NCBI GenBank assembly: GCA_964575575.1 | Contig: CAZNQQ010000002.1 | Location: 1-56,981 of the forward strand | Direction of reading: 5' to 3' | From: an uncultured Candidatus Saccharibacteria bacterium | Lineage (GTDB): Bacteria > Patescibacteriota > Minisyncoccia > Phycocordibacterales > UBA2163 | Length of the DNA: 56,981 nt | In this document: in pieces, positions 15,261 to 48,089 of the stretch | Layout of the letters: every line of letters starts with the position of its first letter | Position numbering within the stretch: the first letter of the stretch is position 1 | Notes under the pieces: generated by a model | Told to the model about the DNA's origin: nothing | The model's database searches: none | The model's input: only the letters and a program-made list of their open reading frames with translations | Position numbers and translations under genes: made by a program

Positions 15261-15271
15261 AATTAATATAA

Positions 15272-16435: not shown

Positions 16436-16442
16436 AATTTTA

Positions 16443-20623: not shown

Positions 20624-20624
20624 A

Positions 20625-21581: not shown

Positions 21582-21584
21582 AGA

Positions 21585-21920
21585 TTATTTAGCAACCATC
21601 GCTACAGCGACAGCTACTCCCGCATCATGGCTTATACTAACCTCTATTTTATGTGTTTTTTTTATTTTTAACACAATTTCTGGCTTACCTTCGTCATTAT
21701 GGACAACTTCAATAAGATCGTATCGTTTCATTATATCATTGCCGACCGCCTTCATTACAGCCTCTTTAGAAGCAAAAATGCCAGCAAGATGCATTGCTGA
21801 ATTTACTCCTTTGAAACAATATTTCCATTCACTCTTTGTGAAGACTTTTTCCCATGAAGAATAATCATTCTCTGAAATCTTTTCAAACCTATTTATATCT
21901 GTAATATCAACACCAATCAT
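21585..21920 (-). CDS. acpS: Holo-ACP synthase (4'-phosphopantetheinyl transferase, AcpS type)
   Basis: ORF track 21585..22031. The AcpS-like sequence starts at MIGVDITDINRFEK (ATG at 21920), 1 nt after the upstream stop. Also shows FASKEAVMKA and ISHDAGVAVA. Confidence 0.8.
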   Translation of the reverse strand: MIGVDITDINRFEKISENDYSSWEKVFTKSEWKYCFKGVNSAMHLAGIFASKEAVMKAVGNDIMKRYDLIEVVHNDEGKPEIVLKIKKTHKIEVSISHDAGVAVAVAMVAK

Positions 21921-21921
21921 G

Positions 21922-25206: not shown

Positions 25207-25208
25207 AT

Positions 25209-27054: not shown

Positions 27055-28171
27055 AGAAATCAAAATTGGAAATAAGAAAATTGGCAATAATCAGCCCGCA
27101 TTTATCATTGCTGAGCTTTCTGGGAATCATCATCAAAATTATGATGAAGCTGTTGAGCTTATTAAAAAAGCCGCAGATAGCGGAGCAGATGCAATAAAGA
27201 TTCAGACATATACAGCCGACACACTTACACTTAATTCAAAGAACAAATGGTTCATAGTTGGAGGTAAAGACCAACCAGACATATGGAAAAATCAATCCAT
27301 TCATGATCTTTACAAAACTGCTTACACACCTTGGGAGTGGCAAGCAAAATTAAAAAAAGTTACAGAAGATCTTGGTATGCTTTTCTTCTCTACCCCATTT
27401 GACGATACTGCTGTAGATTTCTTAGAAGATATGGGAGTGCTCTTCTATAAGATAGCATCGTACGAAGCAGTTCATATTCCACTTTTGAAAAAAGTCGCCC
27501 AAACTGGAAAGCCGGTGATTATGTCTGTTGGGTTTGCAACACTTCCAGAAGTAGAACTCGCCGTTAAAACACTTAAAGAAAATGGTTCTGGAGAGATTGT
27601 AGTGCTTCATTGTGTTACAGAATATTCTGACAATGCACGCCTGCAATATATGAATCTTAAAACAATTAGGGACATAGCAGAGCGCTTTGACGTACTGAGT
27701 GGCTTCTCTGACAACAATGCCGGTATTCAGGTGCCCACTATAGCTACAACAGTTGCTGGTGGATCTGTTGTTGAAAAACATCTGACACTGCGACGCGAAG
27801 ATGGCGGACCAGATGCAAGGTTTTCAATTGAGCCAAAAGAGTTCAAACAAATGGTAGCTGATATCAGAAAGATTGAAAAAGATTCTTCTGCAATTAATGA
27901 GGTTGCATCAAAAGAAGAGATTGAAACAATGATGGGCAATACCCATTACGGTCCAGCTAGTGAAAAAGAGGAGGAGAATACATTGTTTCGTCCATCAATA
28001 TGGGTAAAAAAATCAATCAGGAAGGGGGAAATATTATCAATAGATAATATACGTGTAGCACGTCCAAAGCATGGACTCGCTCCAAAACATTTTGATAAGG
28101 TGTTAGGGAAAAAAGCAAAAGAAGATATTCCAGAAGCAACTCCGCTATCATGGGATGTTATAGAAAATTAA
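27047..28171 (+). CDS. pseI: Pseudaminic acid synthase (NeuB family with SAF domain)
   Basis: 374 aa. Shows PAFIIAELSGNHHQNYDEAVELIKKAADSGADAIKIQTYTADTLT and FSDNNAG. The C-terminal SAF block is GEILSIDNIRVARP. Confidence 0.85.
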   Translation: MTKEIKIGNKKIGNNQPAFIIAELSGNHHQNYDEAVELIKKAADSGADAIKIQTYTADTLTLNSKNKWFIVGGKDQPDIWKNQSIHDLYKTAYTPWEWQAKLKKVTEDLGMLFFSTPFDDTAVDFLEDMGVLFYKIASYEAVHIPLLKKVAQTGKPVIMSVGFATLPEVELAVKTLKENGSGEIVVLHCVTEYSDNARLQYMNLKTIRDIAERFDVLSGFSDNNAGIQVPTIATTVAGGSVVEKHLTLRREDGGPDARFSIEPKEFKQMVADIRKIEKDSSAINEVASKEEIETMMGNTHYGPASEKEEENTLFRPSIWVKKSIRKGEILSIDNIRVARPKHGLAPKHFDKVLGKKAKEDIPEATPLSWDVIEN

Positions 28172-32996: not shown

Positions 32997-34153
32997 TGAA
33001 ATATATTATTCTTAATTTTGCATATGGTTTTGGTCCGCCACTTAGAACTACAGAATTAGCCATTGCGGTTAATGACATGCTCAAAGAAAAGACTGGGGAG
33101 AAATTTGGTATTATAGTCCCGCTTATTTATGGCGATGATCAGAGAAGAATAATGCGTGAATCTTTTTCTGAAACAATACAACAAAATCCAGATGCTATAC
33201 TACTTGATGAGACTTTAGGGAATTATCTGAAGTCTGTTTTTTACGGTGAAAAAAGTTATGAAGAATCATTAAAATTTCTCCTTAAAAATAAGACAAAAGT
33301 TGAAACAACTATAAAAGATTATATCTCAAACGGATTAACTGCTGAAACATTTGATGGAACAACTATCTCTATTGATAAAAAAGATATTGCATTTGAAATA
33401 AATAGAAACCCAAGATTAAATTTTAATATCTACCCGTCGTATTCAGTTAGTTTTGCTTACAATTCAGATATTTTAAAACAAACACTAAAAGAAAATGTAG
33501 GCAATACTGATAAAAAAGTTATAAGAGAAGTCATTCCATTGTTTGAAGAGATTGAAAATGACCAACAACTTTACTTTGTCGCAGATCCTGCAACATTTTC
33601 AAACAAAGGTAAAGAATTTAGAAAAAGTAGAAAAAATGAAGTGTATACTCCACCAACATTACACAAATTAAAAAATACCGATGATAATATCAAAAAAGGT
33701 ATTTACGTAACTGTAACAGGTATACCTGGACTCAATAGACTGTTTGAAGAGGCACGCAATATAGGATTACAAATTTACTCCAACAAGCCAGAATCTGTCG
33801 CTGGAAGCATTAAAGCATCACCGTCAATTATGGCTCATGAAAATATATTGTTACATTTTGCAAGATCTGGGTGGGGATCAGTATGGCTTTCTCAATTTAC
33901 AAAAACACCTTTTATTACACCATCTTACGATAAGGACGATGACCCTGAAATTTATTTCAACAATATTTGTATTGAACAACTTGGCCTAGGGACAATTTAT
34001 AAAAACCAAAATTTAGACGAATTACTAGAAATTAAAGACGTATATGTATCAAATATAGAAAAAATAAATAAGTATCTTATGGATACCTATGGTACTCTTG
34101 ATGGAATAGAGTATACTACTAAAAAGATCGTTAATCACTTTTTAAATATATGA
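32996..34153 (+). CDS. Hypothetical protein, possibly GT-B fold (MurG/PseG-like C-terminal motif)
   Basis: 385 aa. The only recognisable element is LLHFARSGWGSVWLSQFTKTPFITPSY, which resembles the xRxGxxTxxE..PxIxxP block of the GT28/PseG family. Start overlaps the upstream stop (ATGA-type). Confidence 0.35.
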   Translation: MKYIILNFAYGFGPPLRTTELAIAVNDMLKEKTGEKFGIIVPLIYGDDQRRIMRESFSETIQQNPDAILLDETLGNYLKSVFYGEKSYEESLKFLLKNKTKVETTIKDYISNGLTAETFDGTTISIDKKDIAFEINRNPRLNFNIYPSYSVSFAYNSDILKQTLKENVGNTDKKVIREVIPLFEEIENDQQLYFVADPATFSNKGKEFRKSRKNEVYTPPTLHKLKNTDDNIKKGIYVTVTGIPGLNRLFEEARNIGLQIYSNKPESVAGSIKASPSIMAHENILLHFARSGWGSVWLSQFTKTPFITPSYDKDDDPEIYFNNICIEQLGLGTIYKNQNLDELLEIKDVYVSNIEKINKYLMDTYGTLDGIEYTTKKIVNHFLNI

Positions 34154-35121
34154 CAAAAATAATAGTGGAAATATGCCAAAACCATAATGGCGACAGAAAG
34201 CAGCTTGAGGAAATGATAGCTCAAGCGGCTAAAAGTGGTGCTGATATTGTTAAGATGCAGTCAATATATTCTGCTGATTTGACCAAAAGAGACCGTTTTG
34301 AAGAAGGTGTGACTGATGAAAATGGTGAACAAACTTCAATCAAAAGACCGTACAAAGATGAATATGAGAGATTATCCAAACTAGATCTTACTATGGATGA
34401 TGAAGCTTTCTTTATTGAGAAATGTAAGGAGTATAACGTTACGCCAATGACTACAATTTTTGCAAGACATAGAATTAAAGAAGTCGCATCTCTTGACTGG
34501 CCAGAAAAAATAATAAAAGTTGCAAGTTATGACTGCGCTAGTCTGCCAATGCTAAGAGAACTCGCTGAGCACTTTGATCACTTTATTATATCAACAGGTG
34601 CTACATACGACAGTGAGATAGAAAGTACTGCTAAATTGATGAAAGATTTGGGTAAAAATTTTTCTTTTCTTCATTGTGTTACGAGTTATCCAAACACACT
34701 GGAGATGGCCAATCTATCACGTATGGAGTGGCTAAGACAATTTACACCAAAAGTCGGATGGTCAGATCATACACTTATTGAAAGAGATGGCATTACAGCA
34801 GCAAAGATAGCGATCATGCTTGGTGCTGATTTTATTGAGCGACATTTTACAACACTGGGACATGGTGATACAAAAGACGGTCCAGTGTCTATAACCCCAG
34901 ACCTACTTAAAGAGCTAAGTGAATTTAGAAAACTCTCATATGAAGAACAGAAAAAACAAATTGAAAAAGAATACCCTAATTGGAAACTACTATTAGGTGT
35001 TCAAACAAGAGAAATGACAAAAACCGAACTACTCAACAGAGACTACTATCGTGGAAGATTTGCCAGCCCAACAAAAGATGGGTGGATTGATAACTGGGAA
35101 GAAAAAGATATAAACAAGTAA
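34150..35121 (+). CDS. NeuB-family aldolase-type synthase (third paralog), lacking a clear SAF domain
   Basis: 323 aa. Shows IIVEICQNHNGDRKQLEEMIAQAAKSGADIVKMQS, KVASYD, WSDHT and IERHFT. A ~30-aa acidic insertion follows the first strand-helix unit. Confidence 0.7.
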   Translation: MTKIIVEICQNHNGDRKQLEEMIAQAAKSGADIVKMQSIYSADLTKRDRFEEGVTDENGEQTSIKRPYKDEYERLSKLDLTMDDEAFFIEKCKEYNVTPMTTIFARHRIKEVASLDWPEKIIKVASYDCASLPMLRELAEHFDHFIISTGATYDSEIESTAKLMKDLGKNFSFLHCVTSYPNTLEMANLSRMEWLRQFTPKVGWSDHTLIERDGITAAKIAIMLGADFIERHFTTLGHGDTKDGPVSITPDLLKELSEFRKLSYEEQKKQIEKEYPNWKLLLGVQTREMTKTELLNRDYYRGRFASPTKDGWIDNWEEKDINK

Positions 35122-35123
35122 CT

Positions 35124-35867
35124 ATGAACAAAAATAAAGAATTAAAAATAATTGCAGTTATGCTTGCACGTGGTGGCTCAAAAGGAATACCAGGAAAAAA
35201 TATTAAAAACCTTGCGGGTAAACCTCTTATCGCATGGACTGGAGATGAAGCGCAGAAATCAAAATATATACAACGCACTATTTTAAGTACAGACTATGAA
35301 GATATCGCAAAAGTCGGAAAAGAGCATGGACTAGAAGTGCCTTTTATAAGACCATCTGAACTCGCTGAAGACATGACTCCAGACCCCCCTACTATTGAGC
35401 ACGCAATCAAATGGCTAGAAGAAAAAGAGGGCTATATACCTGATATTATAGTCCATTTACGCCCCACAGGACCGTTGGTTACAGCAAAAGAGCTCGACGA
35501 AGCAATCAAGCTTTTGATAGATAACCCAGAAGCAGACAGTGTCCGCTCTGTACAAGAACCACCAAAGCCTCCATTTAAGATGTGGACTGTAGATGAAGAA
35601 TATATGACTCCTTTTATAAAAGAGGTAAAAGGTTCAGATGGTAATATAATTAAAGACGCTCACACCGCTCCAAGACAGTTGTTACCAAAAGTTTATCAAA
35701 CAACTGCTGACATTGGTGTGCTAAGACTTAGCACACTTCTTGAAAAGAAATCTGTTATAGGTGATAAAGTATTGCCGTATCATTTAGATAGAGAAACTAT
35801 AGACATAGACACACCGATTGATTTTGAAATTGCGCGTATGATGCTCGAAAAAAGAAGGAAGGCTTAA
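35124..35867 (+). CDS. Acylneuraminate cytidylyltransferase-family enzyme (third CMP-sugar synthetase)
   Basis: 247 aa. Shows IAVMLARGGSKGIPGKNIKNLAGKPLIAWT and LRPTGPL. Confidence 0.85.
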   Translation: MNKNKELKIIAVMLARGGSKGIPGKNIKNLAGKPLIAWTGDEAQKSKYIQRTILSTDYEDIAKVGKEHGLEVPFIRPSELAEDMTPDPPTIEHAIKWLEEKEGYIPDIIVHLRPTGPLVTAKELDEAIKLLIDNPEADSVRSVQEPPKPPFKMWTVDEEYMTPFIKEVKGSDGNIIKDAHTAPRQLLPKVYQTTADIGVLRLSTLLEKKSVIGDKVLPYHLDRETIDIDTPIDFEIARMMLEKRRKA

Positions 35868-37072
35868 TCGCTTTTTATAAATTTAATTATTTTATTTATT
35901 GAATCTAAATCAATATGACCATTGTCGTATTGATTTTCTAATTTATTATTCTTAAACTGATTTAATTTATCCAAAAACATATTATCATTTACTACAACAT
36001 CTTTTACTTTATAATATTTTTTTGCAACTTTATTAAAAGCATCTGACAAAAACAGATTAATGAAGATGGCCGGAACACCACTTGCAAGCACCATGTAGTT
36101 AGTACTTGTCCACGCATCTGTAATACACAAGTCCGACATACAAAGTAGTTCATCTGTATCTGATTCATCCGCAAAAATTTTTACACCAAGCTCTTTGTAG
36201 AATTCATACATGTCTGGCTTATCCGATGGATGTAATTTTAATAAAACATCAGCCTCATCTTTGGTAAATATTTTTCTTACTGTTTGGACAATATTACGAT
36301 ATCTTTTAATCTGTCCTTCTGTTGTAAGATTAGTCCCAGCTTTTAGATGGTGACTTTGTGCGATTATTATAATATTAAGTTTATTAGAATCAATACCGTA
36401 CTTACTCTCCATCTCACACTTAAACATTTGATCTGAAGTAATTTTTTTTCTCATATTATAAACTTTCTGAAAATCTACAATACCAACAGTTTGTATAGTA
36501 TCTAAATCAAAATCAAATTTGAGATTAAAACTCTCTACAGCGTTTTCATCTATAACTCCAACTTTTTTTGGTTTATCTAAAGAATTAAAAGCATTAAAAA
36601 TGAAATCGATAATATAATAGTAGATTTTTTTTATAAATGATTGTTTTATGTGTCTGTCAGAAAATAGGTTTTCAGATGGAATAAGTGCTGTTTGTAAGAC
36701 AATCGTTTCAATATCTAACTTATTAGCTTCACTGATAATCGTATTAAACGGCGGCAACGCTTTTGTCAGCACAATTTTCTTAGGTGATTTTTCTTTTAAG
36801 AAAGATCTGACCGCCTGTGTATATTCCCTTTTACCATATAAAGCTGAAAAAAACGGTACTCTAAACTTTGTCTTATTTAGTCCACTTTCCACAAGATCAT
36901 AATGAAAATTGTTTTCTTTGCAGAATTTTTCCATCTGTTCTCTTCTCTCATTTTTCCCTCTAACAATCAGAAATCGAGCATCATAGCTATCTGAGAGATA
37001 CAGAAAAAGCTTTGCGTAATATTTCATAGAGGCAATATATACTGGCACAAAATATATCTTTGGTTTTTCCAT
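35864..37072 (-). CDS. TagF-like / capsule-type GT-B transferase candidate with an HP motif (CDP- or CMP-activated donor?)
   Basis: 402 aa. VLLKLHPSDK followed by ELLCMSDLCITDAWTSTNYMVLASGVPAIFIN matches the K-x-HP ... LITDYSS ... P-x-I-F pattern of the Glyphos_transf/TagF-type family. Confidence 0.45.
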   Translation of the reverse strand: MEKPKIYFVPVYIASMKYYAKLFLYLSDSYDARFLIVRGKNERREQMEKFCKENNFHYDLVESGLNKTKFRVPFFSALYGKREYTQAVRSFLKEKSPKKIVLTKALPPFNTIISEANKLDIETIVLQTALIPSENLFSDRHIKQSFIKKIYYYIIDFIFNAFNSLDKPKKVGVIDENAVESFNLKFDFDLDTIQTVGIVDFQKVYNMRKKITSDQMFKCEMESKYGIDSNKLNIIIIAQSHHLKAGTNLTTEGQIKRYRNIVQTVRKIFTKDEADVLLKLHPSDKPDMYEFYKELGVKIFADESDTDELLCMSDLCITDAWTSTNYMVLASGVPAIFINLFLSDAFNKVAKKYYKVKDVVVNDNMFLDKLNQFKNNKLENQYDNGHIDLDSINKIIKFIKSD

Positions 37073-37087: not shown

Positions 37088-37113
37088 AACTAACCGCAAT
37101 ATTGCGGCTAGTT
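37088..37113 (-). terminator. Intrinsic terminator closing the fcl-to-DUF4956 gene string
   Basis: 12-bp stem aactaaccgcaa/ttgcggctagtt with one mismatch. Followed on the minus strand by tttattaaataaattt. Confidence 0.55.
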
Positions 37114-37150: not shown

Positions 37151-37837
37151 CTAATATTCTATATCAGACTTTGAGCTTATAATGTGCACATTGTCTACCC
37201 CTTCAATCCTTGAGACCTCTTTTACAAGTTCACTACTTTTTGCCTCATCAATAAACCTCACGCTGTATACCATCTCTGATGAGTGTCCACCTCCTTTTGA
37301 TGAAATATTTAGAAGCATACTGTTTTTTAAATATTTTTCAAATACACCTGAGAAAGAATCTGGTGGATTTCTGTCTGAATCAACTACAAAAGTCAGAAGA
37401 TAGTCATTGTGATGTATTGAACCAAAATTTGTTTTATACATAAGCCAGATAACAACAAGCATAACAACCGTAGATGCAATGGCGATAGTGTAGTTATTTG
37501 TACCAACTGCCATACCCATAGCAAGAGAGAGGAAAATAAAACCTGTGTCTCTCACCTCTTTTACAACAGTACGAAAACGAATAATTGAAAAAGCTCCAAG
37601 CAAACCAAAAGCTACTGCTAGACTGTTTCCAATAACCATCATAATAATTGATGTAACCATACTGACGATTATAAGAGTTGAAGCAAAGTGTTGAGAATAT
37701 GAAAATCCTTTATGTGTTATCTTGTAAACATAAGTAATTGAAATAACCAAAACTAATGTCAAAAACAAATTGAGTACAACATGTCCTATTGTAAAATTCC
37801 CCGCTACATCACCAATTGTAAGTAAATTTTCTATCAT
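37151..37837 (-). CDS. DUF4956-family membrane protein
   Basis: 228 aa. Four N-terminal TM helices with GLLGAFSIIRFRTVVKEVRDTGFIFLSLAMGMAVG (DUF4956 signature as I recall it), then a soluble C-terminal domain. Confidence 0.75.
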   Translation of the reverse strand: MIENLLTIGDVAGNFTIGHVVLNLFLTLVLVISITYVYKITHKGFSYSQHFASTLIIVSMVTSIIMMVIGNSLAVAFGLLGAFSIIRFRTVVKEVRDTGFIFLSLAMGMAVGTNNYTIAIASTVVMLVVIWLMYKTNFGSIHHNDYLLTFVVDSDRNPPDSFSGVFEKYLKNSMLLNISSKGGGHSSEMVYSVRFIDEAKSSELVKEVSRIEGVDNVHIISSKSDIEY

Positions 37838-37842
37838 ATAAA

Positions 37843-38658
37843 TTAATCATTAATCAATAATCTATTTTTGTTTAACCTTAGAGAGTCAGATTGAGAATTA
37901 TTACCCAACGCATGCAACAATGGTAAAGTATAGCACGCCTCAACCCCCTCACAATACTTTGAATATGGCACCCTTTCTAAATTATAAGTCTTTATAATAT
38001 TTTCTATATAAAACGGTAATGCTCCTGTGAACTTTATCTCCATAATAACCTTCGTGCCAGACAGGTCAATAAAACCATTTTCATCATGCAACAAATGCTC
38101 TCCACGCTTTGCTTTTATAGCATAATCAAAGGTGATTCTAACATTTTTATTAAATTTACCCAAATACGGCTCACGATTATATGAAATTAGGATTTTGGGT
38201 GATATGAAGCGGCGTCCCTTTACAGAATGAAATTCTTCCAATATTTCTTTCCTATTTTCATCACGTATTGAGTCAGAATTAAAAAAATCTCCGCGTTCTA
38301 TTAGATTCTCATAATCATTACCCTTTAATACAAAACGGTCTTTAAGAACAACTGAGTCATGCTTTCTTTTTATTTCAAAAAACATATTGGGGCTCAAAAC
38401 TCCGTCGGTACGATATGTTCGCAAACGTATCTTTTTTCTTTTCTTTGCACCGTCTACTTTTTCCCAGTATGAATAGAACTTTGGGCTGTCATAATACAAA
38501 CTTAAGACTTCATAAAAGCCATGCTTTGTATTACCTACAAATTTATCAAGCTCAACATAATTACAAAGAATCTCACGAATTTCTTTAAATTGTTTTGCGT
38601 CTAAAATATATTTGAATTCTAAACGTTGAAAATGAAGTTTTGGTTTTTCTTGTTGCAT
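37843..38658 (-). CDS. VTC-domain (triphosphate-tunnel, polyphosphate-polymerase-like) protein
   Basis: 271 aa. Shows QRLEFKYIL, LSLYYDSP, KKIRLRTY, FFEIKRKHDSVVLKDR and MEIKF, the alternating basic strands of a TTM/VTC tunnel domain. No TM segment. Confidence 0.8.
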   Translation of the reverse strand: MQQEKPKLHFQRLEFKYILDAKQFKEIREILCNYVELDKFVGNTKHGFYEVLSLYYDSPKFYSYWEKVDGAKKRKKIRLRTYRTDGVLSPNMFFEIKRKHDSVVLKDRFVLKGNDYENLIERGDFFNSDSIRDENRKEILEEFHSVKGRRFISPKILISYNREPYLGKFNKNVRITFDYAIKAKRGEHLLHDENGFIDLSGTKVIMEIKFTGALPFYIENIIKTYNLERVPYSKYCEGVEACYTLPLLHALGNNSQSDSLRLNKNRLLIND

Positions 38659-41498
38659 TATTTTATATCTCTTACTAATCCAATTGAAATTATATCTATA
38701 TCCAGAACATCTTTTAGAATATCAGACACCATATCAATATTACCTACATTTTGCAAAGCTTTGTTCTTTGATACGTTACGGATATCCCAAGATGAGATGA
38801 GTGGATCTATAGAAATATTCCCTTCCCCATCATATCCACCCTCAACATCAGAGTAGTAAATCTTTGTTTTTGAAAATTTATCATCTTGTACTTCCACATC
38901 ATTACCCCAAACAATTGAATTGTATACTTTCGCTTCTCCACCATCTTTAAATATTGCCTTTTTCCTGTATGCGTTGAGACCAATCTCGTTGCCGATAATC
39001 ACATTGTTTATAATTCTTGGTGTTGAACTATCTTTTGTTTCAATACCAATCTTACATTTTTTAAGTACATTATTAAAAATAATTGGCTTTTTTGAATTTT
39101 CTCCAATACTAATGCATTTATCTCCTGATTCATTTATATAATTATCAGAAATTAATATACTTGAGCCAGATATATCAATACTGTCGTTTCCATTCTTATC
39201 AAAAAAATTACTCTTAATCTCTCCATCTGCATAATCAATATCTATAGCATCAGCCGAGTTTCTCACAAACTTATTGTCAAAAATATTTGCTACAGCGTAT
39301 TTTACATTAATACCGTCATCTCCTTTTGCATCTTCAATGGTACTATTAGAGACTTCTATATTAGAATGGTAAGCTGACAATTGACCTGAGAAAAACACAC
39401 CATTTATGTAAGCATTACTCCCACTCTCAAATACAGTATTTTTAAAGATACTTTGGCTCTCTTCTGCCCCTAAAACGCCCAAAATGCCCCATATTTGGCC
39501 CGTAAACGGCCTAAATACGATCGGACTATAGAAAGTACCTACTGCCTCAATTGGGCTGTAAGAAACTAAGGAAACGCCTTTTGCGAAGTTCAGTACTGCA
39601 CCGGGCATAATTTTCAATCTATAGCCTTTTGGCACTACTATATTTTCACTAAAATAGTAGTTACCGCTTGGAAGTATTATGTTGTCACCAGAGCGTATAA
39701 ACATCCAGTGCTTAGCGACAAACTGATTAATCGTCTGACTTATATCAGAAAAGTAATTAAAAGTAGTTGCATCAACATATCTCTTGTCTTTTATTTTCAC
39801 TTTTTTATTTGTTATAGCGTTGTCAGTATTTATTTTTATATCTGTTGGATTTATAGCTTGCGCATTATCATTTAATTTTATGAATACAGTGTGTTTTGTA
39901 TCATACAAAAAGTAATCAATATTATCGAATAGAATTTTGTCGTCTTCTTTTTTTGCTGAGTAAACTAAAAATTCATCATTCAAATCAAACTCTTCATCTT
40001 TATCAGTATCGTAATAAACAGAACCGTTGAATACATCGCTTGGAATTGATATTGATTTAAGTGTAAGCCCTGCAAAATTATCAACAAAGAAATCGAGTGC
40101 TATAAGATTTTTATCAGTGTCATACCTGATCACTAATCTCGAATTATCTGTTTTAAATAATTCTTTTATGTCATCTATATTATTTTCAAATTGTTTACGA
40201 ACTTGCTTAACTTTTTTATCAAATTTAAAATTACTGTCGTGCTTCTTCCAATCAGAATAAAAATTTGCTTTCAGTCTTTTGTACATTTTATCATAAAAAT
40301 CAAAATCGTCTTTTATATTATCTTTGTCGTTCACATACTCCCATAATATTTTATTGCGCTCATATACACGCCCTGAATCACTAAAGAGTTTTCTTCCTAC
40401 AAGAGTATTTATGGATATCCTACTTGGAGGAGCAGGAAATACTTCTAAGTCCCATGGTATAAATTCAAATTTTCCACTACTGTTGTTAAAATACAAACGT
40501 ATGTTGCCTTCGTCACTTGGGTGGTCACTTCCTGCAAGCATTAAAGCCACTTGCCATTTATATAAACTTTCTACATCAATCAGGTCGCCTGCAATTTCTG
40601 AAAAGTTTTCTTGTTCTATTACTTTCGTAAGCATGTCAATTTCTGCATAGTTTTCATAATCAAAAATCTTATCATTTACTGGTTTTGTCCAAAATCTCTC
40701 GTCCTCAAAAATAGATCTACCATCTTCTTCAAAAGTAGAGTTTTGTATATATTCGTCATCATTTGAATAAATATTTGCATCTGCTGGAAGCTTGTTTTTT
40801 TCAAGAGATTCACTACTCCAATCCTCAATCTGATAATACACACCATGGTTACTGCCATTTATTCTAAGTCCTACATATTCGGCTTCTGGGAAACTAAGTC
40901 CTAGCTTATCTGCACGGTAATTATTAAGATATTCTGCAAAGTATGCTCTGTCGTCGGGTATTATAAGTTTAATAATGCGCAAACCTTCAAATAAATCGTC
41001 TTTATCAAACTTTATTTGCCATGAACGTTTTGCTCGTGTCCAATGGTTTGGATTGTCTCCCCTATAACGTACCTTTACATCATATTCTTTACCTTTATAT
41101 GTAAATTTAGCTGGGACTGTTTTTTTATGTTCTTCAGAAAGCCACTGGGTCCCCGCAAGTACTCCATCAGACAAAGAGCTTGGTAAGTTTTTATTAAGTG
41201 CACGTAAATCTTTGCTTTTTATTACTAACTTATATTGTGGTATGTCAGCGCCACCCAACATCTTTGGAATATAGAAAATATTTAGCCCTGTTTTGCTTAT
41301 CTCCCTAACAGAACGATAAACGGGTAGAAGGATTTTTACTCCTTTATTGAATACAAGCTGTGATCTATTTTTAGACACATATTGAAATGCAAAAACGAAA
41401 TTTCCGACAACTAACATGGCAAGCAAAACAAGCACACCGTACTTTATATATCTGCGAGTAAGTAATCTTTTTAAATATTGTTTATAAAAATATTTCAT
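38658..41498 (-). CDS. Membrane-anchored CotH-kinase-family protein with C-terminal right-handed parallel beta-helix repeats
   Basis: 946 aa. N-terminal TM YGVLVLLAMLVVGNFVFAF. CotH-like core: KVRYRGDNPNHWTRAKRSWQIKFDKDDLFEGLRIIKLIIPDD and NGSNHGVYYQIEDW. C-terminal PbH1-type repeats: NSADAIDIDYADGEIKSNFF, NGNDSIDISGSS, GDKCISIG and IINNVIIGNEIGL. Confidence 0.8.
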   Translation of the reverse strand: MKYFYKQYLKRLLTRRYIKYGVLVLLAMLVVGNFVFAFQYVSKNRSQLVFNKGVKILLPVYRSVREISKTGLNIFYIPKMLGGADIPQYKLVIKSKDLRALNKNLPSSLSDGVLAGTQWLSEEHKKTVPAKFTYKGKEYDVKVRYRGDNPNHWTRAKRSWQIKFDKDDLFEGLRIIKLIIPDDRAYFAEYLNNYRADKLGLSFPEAEYVGLRINGSNHGVYYQIEDWSSESLEKNKLPADANIYSNDDEYIQNSTFEEDGRSIFEDERFWTKPVNDKIFDYENYAEIDMLTKVIEQENFSEIAGDLIDVESLYKWQVALMLAGSDHPSDEGNIRLYFNNSSGKFEFIPWDLEVFPAPPSRISINTLVGRKLFSDSGRVYERNKILWEYVNDKDNIKDDFDFYDKMYKRLKANFYSDWKKHDSNFKFDKKVKQVRKQFENNIDDIKELFKTDNSRLVIRYDTDKNLIALDFFVDNFAGLTLKSISIPSDVFNGSVYYDTDKDEEFDLNDEFLVYSAKKEDDKILFDNIDYFLYDTKHTVFIKLNDNAQAINPTDIKINTDNAITNKKVKIKDKRYVDATTFNYFSDISQTINQFVAKHWMFIRSGDNIILPSGNYYFSENIVVPKGYRLKIMPGAVLNFAKGVSLVSYSPIEAVGTFYSPIVFRPFTGQIWGILGVLGAEESQSIFKNTVFESGSNAYINGVFFSGQLSAYHSNIEVSNSTIEDAKGDDGINVKYAVANIFDNKFVRNSADAIDIDYADGEIKSNFFDKNGNDSIDISGSSILISDNYINESGDKCISIGENSKKPIIFNNVLKKCKIGIETKDSSTPRIINNVIIGNEIGLNAYRKKAIFKDGGEAKVYNSIVWGNDVEVQDDKFSKTKIYYSDVEGGYDGEGNISIDPLISSWDIRNVSKNKALQNVGNIDMVSDILKDVLDIDIISIGLVRDIK

Positions 41499-41501: not shown

Positions 41502-43283
41502 TTACTTCCTAATATTATACATCTTGTAGAAATACGACTCTTTGTCTTTTAATAGCTCTTTTGGTGAACCTTTTTCACTGATTACGCCGTTTTCGATTAC
41601 TAATAGTTTATCAGAGTTTGTAATAGTTGAAAGTCTATGTGCAATGACAAGTATTGTTGTATCTCCTTTTAATTCTTCTATTACTTTCTGTACCTGCATT
41701 TCTGATTCATTATCAAGCGCACTTGTCGCTTCATCAAGCAAGAGAATGCTCGGCTGTTTTACAAGCACGCGCGCAATAGCAACTCTTTGTCTCTGACCTA
41801 CAGAGATCTGTATGCCACGCTCCCCAACTACAGTATTGAAACCGTCTGGAAGTGTTTTTATAAAATCATATATGTTTGCTTTCTTTGCTGCATCTATTAT
41901 TTCTTCTTCACTTATTGAATCTCTGTAAAATCTAATATTGTTTGCAATCGTATCATTAGTTAAGAAAATATCTTGAGAAATATAACCTACATTTTCACGC
42001 CAATCGCCCATCTTAATTGAATGAATATCTTTACCATCAAGATTAATTGAACCAGAATCTGGCGTAAAGAGCCTTAGAAGTAGATCGAACAATGTGGTCT
42101 TACCAGCACCTGACAGACCTATAATACCTATCATTTCACCCTTTTTTATAGACAAATTAACGTCTTTGAGTACACCTCTCTTTTCTTCGTACGAGAACAC
42201 AACATCCTTAAACTCTATAGAATCCTCAAATTCAAATGGGAGTTCGCCTTTGTCACCCTCTTGGTTTTCAAGTGCTTTTTGTCTATACTTCATAGTTTCG
42301 TAAAGATATGGGAACAGATTGTTTACCGTATGATAGTTTGACTGTAATATCTGAATGTATGAAAAGATTCTCTGTATCAAATACACCACAGCAAGTAATA
42401 CTGCAAAATTAAAAGCCGGAATAATATGTACCGAACCGGCAAATACAACTGCAATAAATATTACACTTATAGGTTGTATAAATACGGTTGAAAAAGCGCC
42501 AAGCATTGATGTCCTTATCTGAAAATCTTTCAAACTGTCAAAATGCTTGTTAGCTCTTTTTACAATAGCGTTTTCTGCTTTCATTGACTTCACCACCTTC
42601 ATGCCAAAGATTGATTCACTTACAGTGTTTGCAACTGTTTTATTCATTAGACTTCCTTTGTGCGATAATTGGCGTGTACGATATACCAATGGTTTAAATG
42701 AGATAAATATTAAAACACCAATACCTAATGTAACTACAGTAATCTGCCACGAAATATTTATAGCAACAGCAACGTACATTGTAAGTGCTGTAAAAATCAT
42801 GATTGTTTCTGCAATACTGGAGAACAACTTTGCACTTTGACGCACATCTGTAATAAGCACTGTTTCAAGATTTCCTGAGCGTTGTTTTAGTAGATATGGC
42901 CATTTGCTTTTGAGAGTACCACCAAACAAATCGCTTCTCATCTCTCTTTCATAATCAGCACGAATCTTTATCTTTATATAATTAAAAATAAGTAATACAA
43001 CCGCCTTAAGTAAGAAAGAGACAGAAATAAATATAAGTAGATATACTAAAGTAAATGGAATCCCTGCAAATGTAAAAGCTTTCTCAAGAGTTCGTGAAAT
43101 GAAATCTACTTCTCCAGCAGGATTACCAAAGAAAGAAGACAGTAACGGAATAAAGGCATTAACTCCAACACCTTCAATAATGCCGCTCAAAAAACCAAGT
43201 CCAGTCAAAACAATCACTTGGAATTTGTATTTTCTAAACGCGCGAAGAAATAAATCTATAAATATTTGATACTTTTTTTTCAT
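41502..43283 (-). CDS. ABC exporter, fused permease-ATPase (MsbA/lipid-glycan flippase-like)
   Basis: 593 aa. Six N-terminal TM helices, Walker A GLSGAGKTT, signature VGQRQR, Walker B ILLLDEATSALD. Confidence 0.9.
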   Translation of the reverse strand: MKKKYQIFIDLFLRAFRKYKFQVIVLTGLGFLSGIIEGVGVNAFIPLLSSFFGNPAGEVDFISRTLEKAFTFAGIPFTLVYLLIFISVSFLLKAVVLLIFNYIKIKIRADYEREMRSDLFGGTLKSKWPYLLKQRSGNLETVLITDVRQSAKLFSSIAETIMIFTALTMYVAVAINISWQITVVTLGIGVLIFISFKPLVYRTRQLSHKGSLMNKTVANTVSESIFGMKVVKSMKAENAIVKRANKHFDSLKDFQIRTSMLGAFSTVFIQPISVIFIAVVFAGSVHIIPAFNFAVLLAVVYLIQRIFSYIQILQSNYHTVNNLFPYLYETMKYRQKALENQEGDKGELPFEFEDSIEFKDVVFSYEEKRGVLKDVNLSIKKGEMIGIIGLSGAGKTTLFDLLLRLFTPDSGSINLDGKDIHSIKMGDWRENVGYISQDIFLTNDTIANNIRFYRDSISEEEIIDAAKKANIYDFIKTLPDGFNTVVGERGIQISVGQRQRVAIARVLVKQPSILLLDEATSALDNESEMQVQKVIEELKGDTTILVIAHRLSTITNSDKLLVIENGVISEKGSPKELLKDKESYFYKMYNIRK

Positions 43284-44674
43284 ACTGTTTCGACTTCACT
43301 AATAATAACATCTGCAAATCTTTTGCCAGAGTTTCCGTCGACTTTATAACAAAATCTGTCTCTTAACTTTTGCCTTTCGGAACCTTCAAGCTCTGGGTTT
43401 TCCAAATAACGATTTAGAATGTCTCTAAATCCCTCTCGCGACTCTGCAAGCTGTGTCGCGCGAGAATTAACGATTTCTAGATTATAGTCACTTGCATAAC
43501 AAAGCTTTAATGAATGCGACTTTTCCATTTCCTTGTATACATCATACGCAAAATGTATTACCGGTCTATCCAACGCCATAGCATCAAGAGCTATTGTCGA
43601 AGCCACATTCACCACTACATCGGCATGATATAGGCTATTCATAAAACGTTCCAGATGATACCAAGAATAATCAGCATGGTCCCTGAAACCTGCAGATGGA
43701 TTGTTGGAAAGATCCACTACTACATCCTTCTTTCCTAACAAATGAGTGAATTTCTTTTCTTCATCTTTGTAGAAAAAGTGGGGGCGAATCAAAAGTTGAC
43801 AATCTTTCTTAAGTTCGTTTTTGTCTATAAAATCGTGGATGATTGTTGCTATCTCCTTGTCCTCAGGTATTGCCTTGCCTTCCGATGTAAACAAAATGAT
43901 TGGTTTGTTTATATCAAGTCCAAATTCATTGCAGAACTTTTCTTTATTCCAAATCCTGTTTTTGTCTGTATAGTAATCAAATTGAGGTATACCAATAACT
44001 TTTATATTCTTTCTTTTATAGTTCTGAAACTTTTCTGACTGCTCTGCCATAAAGTCACTCCACACTACTAAAGTATCGACTTTTGCACGAAAACCTGCGC
44101 GTGATGGATTGTCCCAACTCTTTGGCATACCTACAACCCTTACTTTCATTTTTTTTGCAGCTTTTATAACAGCGGTTTCAATATCAGACATAATAGAAGT
44201 ACTCACTACAAGTGAGGGATTCTCTCTTTTAATCAGTTCTTTAAATTCTTTTACATCTTTTCTCTGCACAAAAAGATAATCCAACCATTTAACAAAATCC
44301 CGCAATATTCTCAATTTAGAAAGTGGTTTAAATATAATCTTGAAAAGCCAATAACGAAACGTGCTTAAGTCTTCTGGTTTTGAAAGTCCTCGTATGCCGT
44401 GCTTTAGTTTTAGTCCTATGTATTTGTTGTAAATAAGATATTTATTCAATCCTACAAATATTTTGTCAGGTAATGAATGTCCACGCTCTTCAAAATAAAC
44501 AAACTTTACATTTGGATGAGTAAACTCCTCCACAAAACGCTCATCGTTTGCAGCGGGTGTCAGTATTACAATATTGAATTTCTCACGCAAGATTTTATAG
44601 AAATCATTCTTTAGGAGATTCCTTGCCATCATTCCACGGATTATTGTTATTATTATTGTTTTTCTTGTATTCAT
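43280..44674 (-). CDS. Uncharacterised GT-B-like transferase; paralog of 22736..24124
   Basis: 464 aa. See the shared blocks listed for 22736..24124. 4-nt overlaps with both neighbours. Confidence 0.5.
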   Translation of the reverse strand: MNTRKTIIITIIRGMMARNLLKNDFYKILREKFNIVILTPAANDERFVEEFTHPNVKFVYFEERGHSLPDKIFVGLNKYLIYNKYIGLKLKHGIRGLSKPEDLSTFRYWLFKIIFKPLSKLRILRDFVKWLDYLFVQRKDVKEFKELIKRENPSLVVSTSIMSDIETAVIKAAKKMKVRVVGMPKSWDNPSRAGFRAKVDTLVVWSDFMAEQSEKFQNYKRKNIKVIGIPQFDYYTDKNRIWNKEKFCNEFGLDINKPIILFTSEGKAIPEDKEIATIIHDFIDKNELKKDCQLLIRPHFFYKDEEKKFTHLLGKKDVVVDLSNNPSAGFRDHADYSWYHLERFMNSLYHADVVVNVASTIALDAMALDRPVIHFAYDVYKEMEKSHSLKLCYASDYNLEIVNSRATQLAESREGFRDILNRYLENPELEGSERQKLRDRFCYKVDGNSGKRFADVIISEVETV

Positions 44675-45294
44675 GTTTTGTGTATTATTGTATCCACAAT
44701 TTTTTTAATATCATCTTTTAATGAGTCAAAAACAAATGCGTCTTGCTTCATAAAAATATCTGTAAATATATTTGTATTATTACTAATAGTTTTTTGCCAC
44801 TCTTCTTTGTCTAAATTTAAAAACGCACGAGGGATTCTTTTTCTTTTTTCCATACGTTTTATCCTTTCAGAGTCATTGCACAAAATTACAACTTGAATCT
44901 TATTTTGTACTGTAGCGAATCTATCAATGTATTTTTTTGCATCTAACTTAGAGATATTCTTCTCATACAAAGAAAGTCCGTATTGTACTAACCCTTCATC
45001 TAAAATAACATTGTGTTTCCTTCCAATTATTCTTGCTTTTTCGTTTCGTGCTATATACTCACTCAATAAATGAAGTTTGTGCCTTGTAAGACTAAAAGAG
45101 CCTCCTCCTTCTGATATTGTTTTTATGAAAAGTGAGAAAAACTTAATGAAAGAATGAAATAAAAAAATAACATTGTATTTAAATTTTTCTTTCCGAGAAT
45201 TAACAACGATATATTCCCACCCTGTATTAAGATTTAGCTCTCTAGCAATAGTTGTCTTTCCAGCGCCAGATGGACCAAAAAATTCGATTATCAT
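44671..45294 (-). CDS. P-loop NTPase (small kinase-like), function unknown
   Basis: 207 aa. Walker A FFGPSGAGKTTIAREL at the extreme N-terminus and a possible Walker B ILDEG. Confidence 0.5.
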   Translation of the reverse strand: MIIEFFGPSGAGKTTIARELNLNTGWEYIVVNSRKEKFKYNVIFLFHSFIKFFSLFIKTISEGGGSFSLTRHKLHLLSEYIARNEKARIIGRKHNVILDEGLVQYGLSLYEKNISKLDAKKYIDRFATVQNKIQVVILCNDSERIKRMEKRKRIPRAFLNLDKEEWQKTISNNTNIFTDIFMKQDAFVFDSLKDDIKKIVDTIIHKT

Positions 45295-45297: not shown

Positions 45298-46251
<954 letters not shown>

Positions 46252-46380: not shown

Positions 46381-47025
46381 TTGAACGCAGCAATAGAACA
46401 ATTTAAGAAAATAGCAGGAGAAGAAAGATTCAAAGGGTGGCCGTTAGTTGGAAAACATGAACTCGGTGAAAAAATTCCATTTTTTGGACAAGTGCTGAAT
46501 TACAGACTCCAAACTGGCGCTGGAGTGGAAGATTATACTTCTATTCTCCGTTACTTTGGATGGGCTGTCACATTTGGTGTCACTAAATACAATCAGGTTA
46601 TTACTTTAATACAGTGGAAACCTGGTGTAAATTGCGCCAGCTGGGAATTACCTCCTGGAGGGATCGGCAAAATTGATTCTAATGCCACAAACGAGGAAAT
46701 ACTTGCGAAAACAAAAGAGATATATCTTCGCGAGACAGGTTTCGGTGGTGGTAATTGGGAAAAACTTGGTCAAATAATGATGGAAACTGGTAAATACAGA
46801 GGTGCTGGACCAGACGATCATGGTCTTCCTGCACACCTGTTTCTTGCAACCGACTTAGAACATCAAGTAGCTGCAAGGAATCCGAAAGCAAACGAAATCA
46901 TGGAAACCTTAATGGTACCGCTAGATGAATTTGAAGAGGTCATATTGTCAGGACATTTTGCTGAAGCAAGTGCAGTTGCATGCGCATTGCTCGCATTAAG
47001 AAAACTCTCTCCAGTATCTGTCTGA
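46381..47025 (+). CDS. Nudix-family hydrolase (possibly GDP-sugar hydrolase, by context)
   Basis: 214 aa, TTG start with a good SD. WELPPGGIGK-x17-EIYLRETGF approximates the Nudix box. Sits between fcl and gmd. Confidence 0.55.
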   Translation: MNAAIEQFKKIAGEERFKGWPLVGKHELGEKIPFFGQVLNYRLQTGAGVEDYTSILRYFGWAVTFGVTKYNQVITLIQWKPGVNCASWELPPGGIGKIDSNATNEEILAKTKEIYLRETGFGGGNWEKLGQIMMETGKYRGAGPDDHGLPAHLFLATDLEHQVAARNPKANEIMETLMVPLDEFEEVILSGHFAEASAVACALLALRKLSPVSV

Positions 47026-47055
47026 TAGAGTGTTGTGTAGTTTTAGTTAATAATA

Positions 47056-47095
47056 ATTGCGATTGAAAAGAATTTTTTTCAATCGCAATTTTTTA
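47056..47095. terminator. Bidirectional intrinsic terminator between the convergent Nudix and gmd genes
   Basis: 14-bp perfect stem attgcgattgaaaa/ttttcaatcgcaat with a 6-nt loop, followed by tttttatt. Confidence 0.75.
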
Positions 47096-47096: not shown

Positions 47097-48089
47097 TTAT
47101 AATCCATGCTGCTTCAAATCTGATTGAACCATAACCTTTACTAAATCATCAAATTTTGTTTTTGGTTCCCAACCGAGTTTTTCTTTTGCTTTTGAAATAT
47201 CAGCTTTAAGCACATCTACTTCGGACGGCCTATAATAACGCTGATCAATCTCAACATAGTTCTCCCAATCAGGAATACTTGCATGCCGAAAAGCACTTTC
47301 CACAAAATCTTTTACAGAGTATGTCTCCCCTGTACCTATTACATAATCATCAGGCTCATCCTGCTGAAGCATAAGCCAAGCAGCTTCCATGTATTCTGGC
47401 GCATAGCCCCAGTCACGTTTAGCGTCTAGATTGCCAAGATAGAGCTTTTTATCAAGACCTGCTTTTATACGTGCAACCCCGCGTGTTATTTTCCTTGTTA
47501 CAAATGTCTCCCCTCTTCTTTCGCTCTCATGGTTAAAAAGTATTCCATTTACAGCAAATATTCCATATGCCTCTCTATAATTAACAGTTGTATGGTATGC
47601 AAATACTTTTGCGCAACCATATGGACTCCTTGGATGAAATGGCGTCTTTTCGTTTTGTGGAGGAAGGGCTGAACCAAACATCTCACTTGATGACGCTTGA
47701 TAGAATCTAATTTTCTTTCCACCTTGTTTTTGTAAATCTTTTATCGCCTCTAGAAGCCTTATGGTACCAAGACCTGTTATGTCAGCTGTATACTCTGGTG
47801 TATCAAAAGAAACTCTTACATGAGACTGTGCACCAAGGTGATAAACCTCATCTGGCTGAATATCAAAAATTAATTTTCTTATATTCCCTGTATCAGACAA
47901 ATCGCCATAATGCAAAAACAGTCTTCTTCCTTTGTCATGCGGATCTTGATATATGTGGTCTATCCTGTCTGTATTTATAGACGATGACCTTCGTTTTATA
48001 CCGTGTACTTCATACCCCTTATCAAGCAAAAACTCTGCTAAGTATGAACCATCCTGACCTGTTATTCCTGTTATAAATGCTTTTTTCAT
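47097..48089 (-). CDS. gmd: GDP-mannose 4,6-dehydratase
   Basis: 330 aa. Shows [49 protein letters not shown] and [19 protein letters not shown]. Confidence 0.95.

Follow-up and report, generated by a model that had tools for sequence, protein, structure and literature searches.

Genes for CotH, VTC, and DUF4956 family proteins have already been described as neighbors (PMC7112168, PMC12345266, PMC2879425). One such trio lies beside Gram-positive Pel operons and in Streptococcus intermedius consists of SIR_1594, SIR_1593, and SIR_1592 (PMC7112168, PMC12345266). There, the genes stand on one strand in the order CotH, VTC, DUF4956, appended to the exopolysaccharide locus; the CotH protein is predicted to be secreted, and the DUF4956 protein was reported to resemble MgtC and to contain an ACT domain. 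Knock-outs of the S. intermedius genes have mild phenotypes: deletion of the CotH or DUF4956 homologue altered the Pel level and halved aggregation, with Pel higher in the DUF4956 mutant and lower in the CotH mutant, whereas the VTC deletion had no phenotype and left aggregation unaffected. Opposite changes in Pel, together with a silent VTC deletion, are a poor fit to a simple linear pathway. No mechanism for the trio was found in the literature searched; a first-pass annotation of the DNA analyzed here had stated that, to its author's knowledge, the neighborhood has no experimentally assigned function.

A second described counterpart is NELoc-2 of Clostridium perfringens, which encodes a VTC protein, a "tubulin/FtsZ-like" membrane protein, CotH, a 685-aa protein, a HEAT protein, and a chitin-synthase-like glycosyltransferase (PMC2879425). 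About 20 Firmicutes loci in our survey share this layout. The small cytoplasmic-membrane protein of NELoc-2 is presumably DUF4956, and it accompanies VTC and CotH there as it does in the locus described below; however, the NELoc-2 genes run VTC-DUF4956-CotH, a synthase-type GT2 makes the glycan with no ABC exporter present, and the CotH protein is short (~500 aa) and keeps the Asp at its catalytic column.

The gene string in a CPR bacterium

The window, i.e., the whole stretch of 56,981 nucleotides analyzed, belongs to a CPR bacterium, and in it the trio is embedded in an extensive island of surface-sugar genes. A tight string of seven genes on the minus strand begins, downstream of gmd (47097-48089), with an fcl-like NAD-dependent epimerase/reductase of the GDP-fucose branch (45298-46242; Pfam Epimerase 1e-52, GDP_Man_Dehyd 2e-25). 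This is followed by a small P-loop protein of 207 aa (44671-45294; AAA_18-like, 3e-07), a TagF-like protein of the glycerophosphotransferase fold (43280-44674; Glyphos_transf, PF04464, 9e-16), and a fused TMD-NBD ABC exporter resembling MsbA, HepA, and PglK (41502-43283; ABC_membrane 7e-16, ABC_tran 7e-36, top NCBIfam match HepA_fam 1e-113). The last three genes encode a signal-anchored CotH-family protein of 946 aa (38658-41498; Pfam CotH 1e-18, plus Beta_helix and NosD), a VTC-type triphosphate-tunnel protein of 271 aa (37843-38658; Pfam VTC 1e-42, profile positions 2-234 of 235), and a DUF4956 membrane protein of 228 aa (37151-37837; 3e-17, with a weak MgtC match). All three family matches exceed the curated Pfam cut-offs, bearing out the domains first assigned to them, and gene calling done independently on two public contigs recovers the same genes.

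The fcl/P-loop junction is a 3-nt gap and the next two are 4-nt overlaps; a 3-nt gap then separates the exporter from CotH, with AGGAAG preceding the CotH ATG, CotH and VTC overlap by 1 nt (TAATG), and VTC and DUF4956 are 5 nt apart. An open-reading-frame check reproduced the coordinates, strand, and trio spacings of the first-pass annotation, as well as its gene order, except that the gene it had called GT-B is the TagF-like one. The latter also has NCBIfam BFO_1060 and surf_polysacc matches, both under their cut-offs; its product may polymerize the exported glycan or serve as its transferase, and in relatives a Capsule_synth gene occupies its position. Tight packing by itself is ordinary in a compact genome; what speaks against chance is the co-occurrence across phyla described below.

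Past the DUF4956 gene, a stable hairpin on the minus strand (37088-37113; 11-bp stem), a possible terminator or attenuator, lies in a 78-nt spacer that folds at -20.8 kcal/mol (z = -5.0). The hairpin is real, but its U-tract is interrupted, and a same-strand gene of 402 aa (35864-37072), weakly TagF-like (Glyphos_transf 2e-4, below cut-off), starts 78 nt past the DUF4956 stop codon and ~15 nt past the hairpin, a position identical on the two public contigs. Consequently, closure of the string by a terminator, as first proposed, is plausible rather than certain, and this gene may or may not be co-transcribed with the trio.

Despite sharing families and order with the S. intermedius accessory genes, the window differs from them in context: an ABC exporter, TagF-like genes, and nonulosonic-acid and fucose pathways surround the trio, no pel genes were found among the window genes scanned, the DUF4832 hydrolase is absent, and the host is a CPR bacterium. 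Its CotH carries a fused beta-helix in place of FN3 and differs at the catalytic-Asp column.

Linkage across phyla and an exporter signature

The comparison set comprised 74 species loci from at least 10 phyla. In 71 of them DUF4956 comes immediately after VTC; two of the three exceptions are contig ends, and the third carries an integrase insertion. CotH is found within 10 kb in 57/74 loci, and in 43 of the 49 (88%) that have at least 4 kb on both sides. Correlations between the proteins' pairwise distance matrices (r = 0.91-0.94) indicate that the three are co-inherited; no natural VTC-DUF4956 fusion was seen. Co-occurrence beyond the window is very strong. In the surveyed loci the module is always within exopolysaccharide or surface-glycan loci: those for Pel, with PelG in L037 (a Pel-type context was reported earlier; PMC7112168), GT2-synthase loci of the NELoc-2 type, and CPR loci with an ABC exporter and nonulosonic-acid genes. 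The GT2-synthase, CPR ABC-exporter, and double-membrane loci found here contradict the published claim that synteny of the trio is limited to Pel loci. An ABC exporter adjoins the trio in L003, L005, L077, L078, and L079 and is a conserved neighbor among close CPR relatives.

In 14 loci from double-membrane phyla, a HlyD-type membrane-fusion protein comes directly after DUF4956, and in four of these the adaptor is itself followed by a TolC-like outer-membrane protein (OEP), often with CotH next. None of the 14 has an adjacent ABC, RND, or MFS pump, and none of the ~50 monoderm and CPR loci has an adaptor after DUF4956. Judged by gene order, VTC-DUF4956-adaptor(-TolC-like) with no conventional pump is an exporter signature, and it lends new support to the export part of the model developed below. 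DUF4956 occupies the position of the inner-membrane pump in tripartite envelope exporters built with HlyD-family adaptors and TolC-family channels; unlike in those systems, no ABC, RND, or MFS pump is there, and the polymerase itself would have to supply the energy. The arrangement is absent from the window, whose host is a CPR bacterium of assumed envelope type.

The VTC and DUF4956 proteins

The VTC protein is soluble, with no membrane helix, as had been annotated, and its family matches Pfam VTC, not CYTH, across its full length; a profile match links it to the Vtc4 structure 3g3q (7e-13). Residues R12, K16, R78, R80, E95, K97, K106, Y160, R162, and R174 align, in the same order, to Vtc4 R196, K200, R264, R266, E279, K281, K294, Y359, R361, and R373; these ten tunnel residues, along with E207, K209, and K234, are invariant in 72-76 of 76 sequences, and the Lys/Arg/Glu set expected of a tunnel enzyme is thus present. 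The C-terminal third (E207, K209, S233, K234) is not explicitly alignable to Vtc4, but an invariant S233-K234 pair lies where the catalytic Lys458 is expected. By our own motif mapping (PMC4641920), three of the four positions that form an acidic patch in hydrolase-type tunnel enzymes appear to be occupied by basic residues (R12, K97, and K209), a polymerase-like feature shared with Vtc4. E14, where Vtc4 has Thr198, is invariant, and one hydrolase-typical position is therefore retained. This residue, and the fact that tunnel enzymes other than Vtc4 are mostly hydrolases, with Vtc4 the sole polyphosphate maker in a side-by-side test (PMC4641920), would suit a tri- or polyphosphatase, cyclase, or other NTP-using enzyme working with DUF4956; given the full-length VTC match, the basic patch, and the placement of S233-K234, we regard such an activity as improbable.

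The AF2 model of DUF4956 (pLDDT 80) has five membrane helices (residues 17-136), one more than first annotated, and the soluble tail is a cytoplasmic ACT-like domain (146-221). Its invariant basic and polar positions are concentrated in the two loops that face the cytoplasm (T41, H42, Y47, S48 and R87, R89, K93). No structural relative of the membrane part was found; Foldseek matches were to ACT domains and the MgtC C-domain (2lqj). The MgtC/SapB/YhiD family shares the five-helix plus ACT-like layout and weak HMM similarity, but DUF4956 scores under that family's cut-offs and is obligately paired with VTC, a pairing not described for MgtC in the literature surveyed. To our knowledge, no member of the MgtC family is an established transporter. 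DUF4956 and VTC could instead tune the cell's phosphate or ATP level or send signals to the glycan machinery, with no export involved. CotH would then be an ordinary ATP-dependent protein kinase, active before secretion, in the course of it, or with ATP that has been released. The MgtC/SapB similarity and the ligand-binding ACT-like domain are consistent with this, as are the opposite Pel changes in the S. intermedius mutants, the GGDEF-EAL proteins and two-component regulators that recur around Firmicutes loci, and the effects of Salmonella MgtC on ATP synthase and PhoR, cited in PMC12345266. Such a regulatory role would leave unexplained the tight DUF4956-adaptor-TolC coupling in double-membrane phyla, the lack of a directly coupled adaptor in monoderm and CPR loci, the invariant polymerase-type tunnel, and the near-universal CotH export signal, and it was judged quite unlikely.

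The eukaryotic VTC complex, a Vtc4 tunnel with a Vtc1/2/3 membrane channel, shares with the window a tunnel domain with matching catalytic Lys/Arg/Tyr residues and, in the logic proposed here, synthesis in the cytoplasm linked to translocation via a membrane protein as partner, plus a ligand-binding regulatory domain. The window VTC, however, has neither an SPX domain nor a Vtc-type membrane domain, differs at E14, and has an unrelated, MgtC-like five-helix partner; the proposed destination is the cell exterior, not the vacuole.

CotH and the proposed pathway

Bacillus CotH works in the mother cell during spore-coat assembly, where ATP is present, and has neither a membrane helix nor a beta-helix. 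The window CotH, in its AF2 model (pLDDT 90.7), comprises a membrane helix (residues ~16-43; 41370-41453, minus strand, by hydropathy and charge count), a stalk, a kinase-like domain (~88-450; 40149-41237, minus), a beta-sandwich, and a right-handed parallel beta-helix (~600-880; 38859-39701, minus). Seven K/R in 19 residues precede the single helix and 908 residues follow it; a hydrophobic segment is likewise present at the N terminus in 58 of 62 relatives. The protein is predicted to lie outside the cell, in agreement with the first-pass annotation. The beta-helix, likewise anticipated, is recovered by Pfam (Beta_helix, NosD) and by Foldseek, with matches to GH87 glucanase, AlgG, NosD, tailspikes, and alginate lyases, and is of a carbohydrate-binding or -processing, polysaccharide type. 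The kinase fold stands (Foldseek TM 0.80, E 1.6e-15 to 5jd9, B. cereus CotH), with R146, G147, K157, D183, N214, E225, N332, and D350 conserved, including the metal-binding Asp (D350) and Asn332 shared with the Bacillus spore-coat kinase (5jd9/5jda). At the catalytic-Asp column (Asp228), however, the window protein has His326, the Asp being replaced in its clade; D228Q inactivates B. subtilis CotH (PMC7821199).

The pathway we tentatively favor, at somewhat under an even chance, is that a phosphate polymer is made inside the cell, exported, and passed to the surface-anchored, kinase-like CotH. The Vtc4-like VTC would turn cytoplasmic nucleoside triphosphate into a phosphate chain, and DUF4956, its obligate neighbor, would carry the product across the membrane, perhaps regulated by its ACT domain as SPX regulates the eukaryotic complex. 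On the outer face, which has no ATP, the anchored CotH phosphotransferase would bind glycan from the ABC exporter through its beta-helix and phosphorylate or decorate it, or a surface protein, with the exported phosphoanhydride. We know of no protein-kinase-fold enzyme with polyphosphate as donor. Domain identities, residue conservation, predicted topology, cross-phylum linkage, the adaptor/outer-membrane coupling, and the glycan-locus context were observed directly or modeled; that polyphosphate is the VTC product, that DUF4956 is its conduit, and what CotH uses as donor and substrate are inferred.

Exported polyphosphate might itself be the end product, as an anionic matrix component or exopolysaccharide cross-linker, with CotH binding or anchoring glycan or acting elsewhere and polyphosphate not its donor. 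The adaptor/TolC-like export evidence applies equally here, the Pel and GT2-synthase/deacetylase loci that the module adjoins make partly deacetylated, cationic polymers (PMC7112168), nearby CotH is missing in 6 of the 49 loci flanked by 4 kb or more each way, and His326 may mean that the window CotH is not a kinase. Nevertheless, CotH accompanies and diversifies with VTC-DUF4956 in most such loci, its nucleotide- and metal-site residues, D350 and N332 among them, are conserved, and aggregation did not suffer in the S. intermedius VTC deletion; this end-product role is unlikely, if less so than the regulatory one.

Three checks that could have refuted the first-pass proposal, on the tunnel residues, the location of CotH, and the co-occurrence of the families, all came out in its favor, and the proposal is partly supported. 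The synthase-translocase-external-kinase model is strengthened but unproven. CotH, VTC, and DUF4956 may form a single conserved unit of function inserted into extracellular-glycan loci, a possibility we hold with a little less than even confidence.

Gene string and the surrounding glycan island

The seven minus-strand ORFs of the string lie exactly where the first-pass annotation had placed them: an fcl-like epimerase gene, a P-loop gene, a TagF-like gene (PF04464) that had been read as GT-B, an ABC exporter, and then the trio of CotH (38658-41498, 946 aa), VTC (37843-38658, 271 aa) and DUF4956 (37151-37837, 228 aa). The junctions are also as described: 3 nt separate the ABC exporter from CotH, which overlaps VTC by 1 nt (TAATG), and DUF4956 follows VTC after a gap of 5 nt. 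The CotH start is preceded by an AGGAAG motif, and the junctions further upstream are similarly tight (one 3-nt gap and two 4-nt overlaps). The domain assignments were upheld by Pfam, all above curated cut-offs (DUF4956 3e-17; VTC 1e-42, full-length; CotH 1e-18), and the CotH protein additionally matched Beta_helix and NosD, likewise above cut-offs. The same gene set was recovered from independent gene calls on two public contigs with an identical CotH. The hairpin at 37088-37113, which had been taken to terminate the string, does have an 11-bp stem, and the spacer that holds it folds well beyond shuffled sequences (z = -5.0), but the U-tract after it is interrupted and a further same-strand gene begins 78 nt past the DUF4956 stop codon. 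Promoter scans gave fewer matches than in shuffled sequence and were left out of the analysis.

The nearest homologues carry the names Candidatus Pacebacteria or Parcubacteria, which makes the host a CPR (Patescibacteria) bacterium. The first ~10 kb of the window holds housekeeping genes (GatB, SecA, MurB), and from about 10.7 kb to the 3' end it is mostly a surface-glycan island. This contains three NeuB genes (paralogues at 16443, 27047, and 34150), three CMP-cytidylyltransferase genes (14553, 26302, and 35124), PseB-like, DegT, gmd, and fcl genes, at least seven GT4 genes, three TagF-like genes, and one Wzy_C-TPR protein (10681-12858), which has 725 amino acids and carries a Wzy_C / O-antigen-ligase domain followed by C-terminal TPR repeats. 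The NeuB/cytidylyltransferase clusters (14553-17546, 24205-28171, and 34150-35867) are accompanied by PseB-like, DegT, UDP-GlcNAc 2-epimerase, and formyltransferase genes, so that up to three nonulosonic-acid pathways seem to be encoded in this single segment of a CPR genome. The grouping of an FkbH-like protein, a polysaccharide deacetylase, and a 4'-phosphopantetheinyl transferase at 18941-22031 suggests acyl-carrier-dependent glycan modification. The plus-strand ORF that separates gmd from fcl (46381-47025) encodes 214 amino acids from a TTG start and matches no Pfam family; after it comes a bidirectional hairpin that is perfect over 16 bp (47055-47090). The window genes scanned contained neither PelG nor another Pel-specific family.

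Conservation of the trio across phyla

A scan of one genome per species yielded 74 loci with VTC relatives, spanning CPR, Firmicutes, Actinobacteria, Planctomycetota, Verrucomicrobiota, Gemmatimonadota, Myxococcota, and other groups; their six-frame ORFs were searched with HMMs iterated from the window proteins. The loci were seeded by one conserved VTC peptide, making the sample broad but not free of bias. The trio is adjacent on one strand in the window, and the same arrangement is seen in several phyla. Across the sample, DUF4956 lies directly downstream of VTC on the same strand in 71/74 loci, and CotH is found no more than 10 kb away in 57/74 (43/49 of those with at least 4 kb on both sides). 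The exceptions to VTC-DUF4956 adjacency are two contig ends and one locus of Collinsella ihumii (L037 6694-12323), in which an integrase gene stands after PelG, CotH, and VTC where DUF4956 would be, apparently a disruption of the module. Compared by their pairwise distance matrices, the three proteins correlate at r = 0.91-0.94, and chance adjacency was rejected on the strength of these correlations together with the locus counts. There is good support for the trio being inherited as a single functional unit linked to extracellular glycans.

The neighborhood varies with lineage. In about 20 loci of Firmicutes (for example, L063 9833-14970, L053 9974-17691, and L045 10326-11435), three proteins are encoded after the trio: a conserved one of ~720 amino acids that matches no Pfam family, one with HEAT repeats, and a chitin-synthase-like GT2 synthase. 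This layout agrees with that of NELoc-2 of C. perfringens, and GGDEF-EAL proteins frequently occur close by. The closest CPR relatives (L077 5249-12833, L078 5168-12893, and L079 3524-10825) have the order CotH with its beta-helix, VTC, DUF4956, ABC exporter, Capsule_synth (PF05159), and nonulosonic-acid genes, whereas in the window the ABC exporter and the TagF-like gene lie on the opposite side of the trio. Because an exporter adjoins the trio in these close relatives, that of the window is a conserved neighbor within the CPR subclade. In another locus, the gene after DUF4956 has a faint CYTH match (L020 11490-12626, E 0.007) and could be a second tunnel-type protein or noise.

The trio is a known kind of module, uncharacterised so far. 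The genes for CotH, polyphosphate polymerase, and DUF4956 have been recorded as accessories to the Pel operons of Gram-positive bacteria (PMC7112168), and the trio is visible in NELoc-2 (PMC2879425). In S. intermedius, deletion of the DUF4956 or CotH homologue changed the amount of Pel and cut aggregation in sputum medium by half, whereas deletion of VTC gave no phenotype; the same authors reported synteny of the trio to be absent outside Pel loci (PMC12345266). The window trio, in contrast, is not attached to a pel operon; it is further marked by the conserved ABC-exporter neighbor in the CPR subclade, the beta-helix fusion, and a histidine at the catalytic column of CotH. A mechanism for the trio was neither proposed nor tested in the literature searched. 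One rival explanation would make polyphosphate itself a matrix component; we regard this as unlikely.

Predicted properties of the three proteins

The VTC protein is soluble, as had been claimed, consisting of the VTC domain only and having no transmembrane helix; compared with eukaryotic Vtc2/3/4, it has neither the N-terminal SPX domain nor the C-terminal Vtc membrane helices. It scores 146.6 bits against PF09359 (cut-off 23), covering profile positions 2-234 of 235. As a single query against PDB sequences it gave chance matches only; a profile was required, and one built from 22 relatives matched yeast Vtc4 (3g3q) at 7e-13. The conserved tunnel residues of Vtc4 have counterparts in the window protein: in an explicit alignment, R12, K16, R78, R80, and E95 correspond to Vtc4 R196, K200, R264, R266, and E279, and K97, K106, Y160, R162, and R174 to Vtc4 K281, K294, Y359, R361, and R373. 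These residues, together with E207, K209, and K234, are invariant in 72-76/76 sequences. For the C-terminal third, a profile of the last 63 residues did not reach Vtc4, and E207, K209, S233, and K234 were mapped by motif only, which assigns the invariant E207 and K234 to Vtc4 E426 and K458; Lys458 is catalytic in Vtc4 (Martinez et al., PMC4641920). Hydrolase-type tunnel enzymes typically have an acidic patch where Vtc4 has basic residues that steer the growing chain (Martinez et al., PMC4641920). When we mapped this patch onto the window protein by motif, three of its four positions appeared basic (R12, K97, and K209), whereas the fourth, E14, is acidic and invariant. Except for E14, the protein thus looks polymerase-like, and it may synthesize polyphosphate from ATP. 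That it is instead a tunnel enzyme of a non-polymerase type seems very unlikely. The VTC profile matched 14,905 clusters (50% identity, E up to 0.001), and the best 150 of these relatives are all stand-alone proteins of 197-346 amino acids; among these and 120 DUF4956 relatives, there was no natural VTC-DUF4956 or VTC-CotH fusion.

The DUF4956 protein scores 63.2 bits against PF16316 (cut-off 30.6). Its AF2 model (pLDDT 80) predicts five membrane helices, at residues 17-41, 49-69, 73-89, 95-112, and 116-136, rather than the four first counted; the soluble tail is modeled as a beta-alpha-beta-beta-alpha-beta domain at residues 146-221. The charge distribution predicts that the N-terminus is outside and the ACT-like tail cytoplasmic. 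Invariant residues cluster in the two predicted cytoplasmic loops (Y38, T41, H42, Y47, and S48 in the first; R87, F88, R89, T90, K93, and D97 in the second). Foldseek found no structural match for the membrane part and otherwise only weak ACT and ferredoxin-like matches, including the MgtC C-domain 2lqj. The ACT-like C-domain is common to DUF4956 and MgtC/SapB, but membership of that family fell below the cut-offs (PF02308, 24.3 bits vs 31.4; NF007431, 28.7 vs 214), leaving a distant relationship only; an MgtC-like regulatory role for the module is considered quite unlikely.

The CotH protein scores 68.4 bits against PF08757 (cut-off 23.8), matches 5jd9 by phmmer (4e-14), and has the fold of B. 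cereus CotH by Foldseek (TM 0.80). Seven K/R among the first 19 residues are followed by a single membrane helix and then by 908 residues predicted to lie outside the cell, and an N-terminal hydrophobic segment is present in 58/62 relatives. In the AF2 model (pLDDT 90.7), a stalk is followed by a kinase-like domain (88-450), a beta-sandwich (454-576), and a beta-helix (600-880), the last matching GH87 glucanase, AlgG epimerase, NosD, phage tailspikes, and alginate lyases by Foldseek. Catalytic residues were taken from PMC7821199 and the 5jd9 alignment. The metal-binding Asp (B. subtilis D251) corresponds to D350, in a PWD motif, and is found in 53/57 sequences; N332 is also conserved. The catalytic Asp (B. 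subtilis D228) appears to be absent, both MAFFT and hhalign placing H326 (40521-40523, minus strand) in that column, by alignment only. Histidine is at least 90% conserved there in the CPR, Peregrinibacteria, and Gracilibacteria clade, whereas Firmicutes and double-membrane relatives keep Asp; the D228Q substitution inactivates B. subtilis CotH (PMC7821199).

Export signature and proposed mechanism

In 14 double-membrane loci (L018, L024, L025, L028-L035, L039, L046, and L070; for example, L032 6284-10719), an HlyD-family membrane-fusion protein is encoded directly after DUF4956 on the same strand. The L032 adaptor, whose sequence was inspected, has the usual N-terminal anchor, lipoyl halves, and coiled coil. 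A TolC-like OEP gene follows the adaptor in L032, L033, L034, and L039, and CotH then follows in several loci. Adaptors and TolC proteins act together with an inner-membrane exporter; no ABC, RND, or MFS pump adjoins the DUF4956-adaptor pair in the double-membrane loci, and DUF4956 sits in the position of the inner-membrane exporter. In the ~50 monoderm and CPR loci, DUF4956 is not followed by such an adaptor, the only matches being weak and kilobases away, and neither an HlyD-family adaptor nor a TolC-family gene lies beside the trio in the window. The gene between DUF4956 and CotH in Gemmatimonadota was considered as an adaptor and rejected, having weak sub-threshold TPR matches (L023).

The first-pass annotation had proposed that VTC and DUF4956 form a polyphosphate synthase-translocase feeding an external CotH, or that CotH phosphorylates glycans or surface proteins. 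The gene arrangement behind this proposal is confirmed, and the interpretation has partial support. In the favored reading, VTC would produce a phosphate chain, DUF4956 would carry it out of the cell, and the external CotH-beta-helix protein would act, with that chain, on an exported glycan. The export step alone is probably correct; the whole sequence from synthesis to action on a glycan is plausible, but we would rate it somewhat below an even chance. Counting most against it are the VTC knock-out without phenotype, E14, His326, and the lack of a known precedent for a kinase-fold enzyme using polyphosphate.

More tentatively still, and on balance doubtfully, the module might be a bacterial VTC-type polyphosphate synthase-exporter, comprising the tunnel enzyme and a DUF4956 channel, with an adaptor and a TolC-like protein in double-membrane species, that powers ATP-free surface phosphorylation by a secreted CotH-fold enzyme. 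In this reading, phosphoanhydride energy would be supplied to the cell surface, the targets would be exported glycans or surface proteins, and the CPR clade would employ a His-containing CotH active site. The export hypothesis is open to direct test through the comparison of envelope types. The module occurs in loci for biofilm and virulence (Pel in streptococci, NELoc-2 in C. perfringens) as well as in CPR surface-glycan islands. If true, the proposal would add a third type of bacterial polyphosphate-making enzyme beside PPK1 and PPK2 and the first dedicated route of polyphosphate export, would explain how secreted kinase-fold proteins work where ATP is absent, and would give a role to three large families, of which VTC alone accounts for the thousands of clusters matched by its profile.
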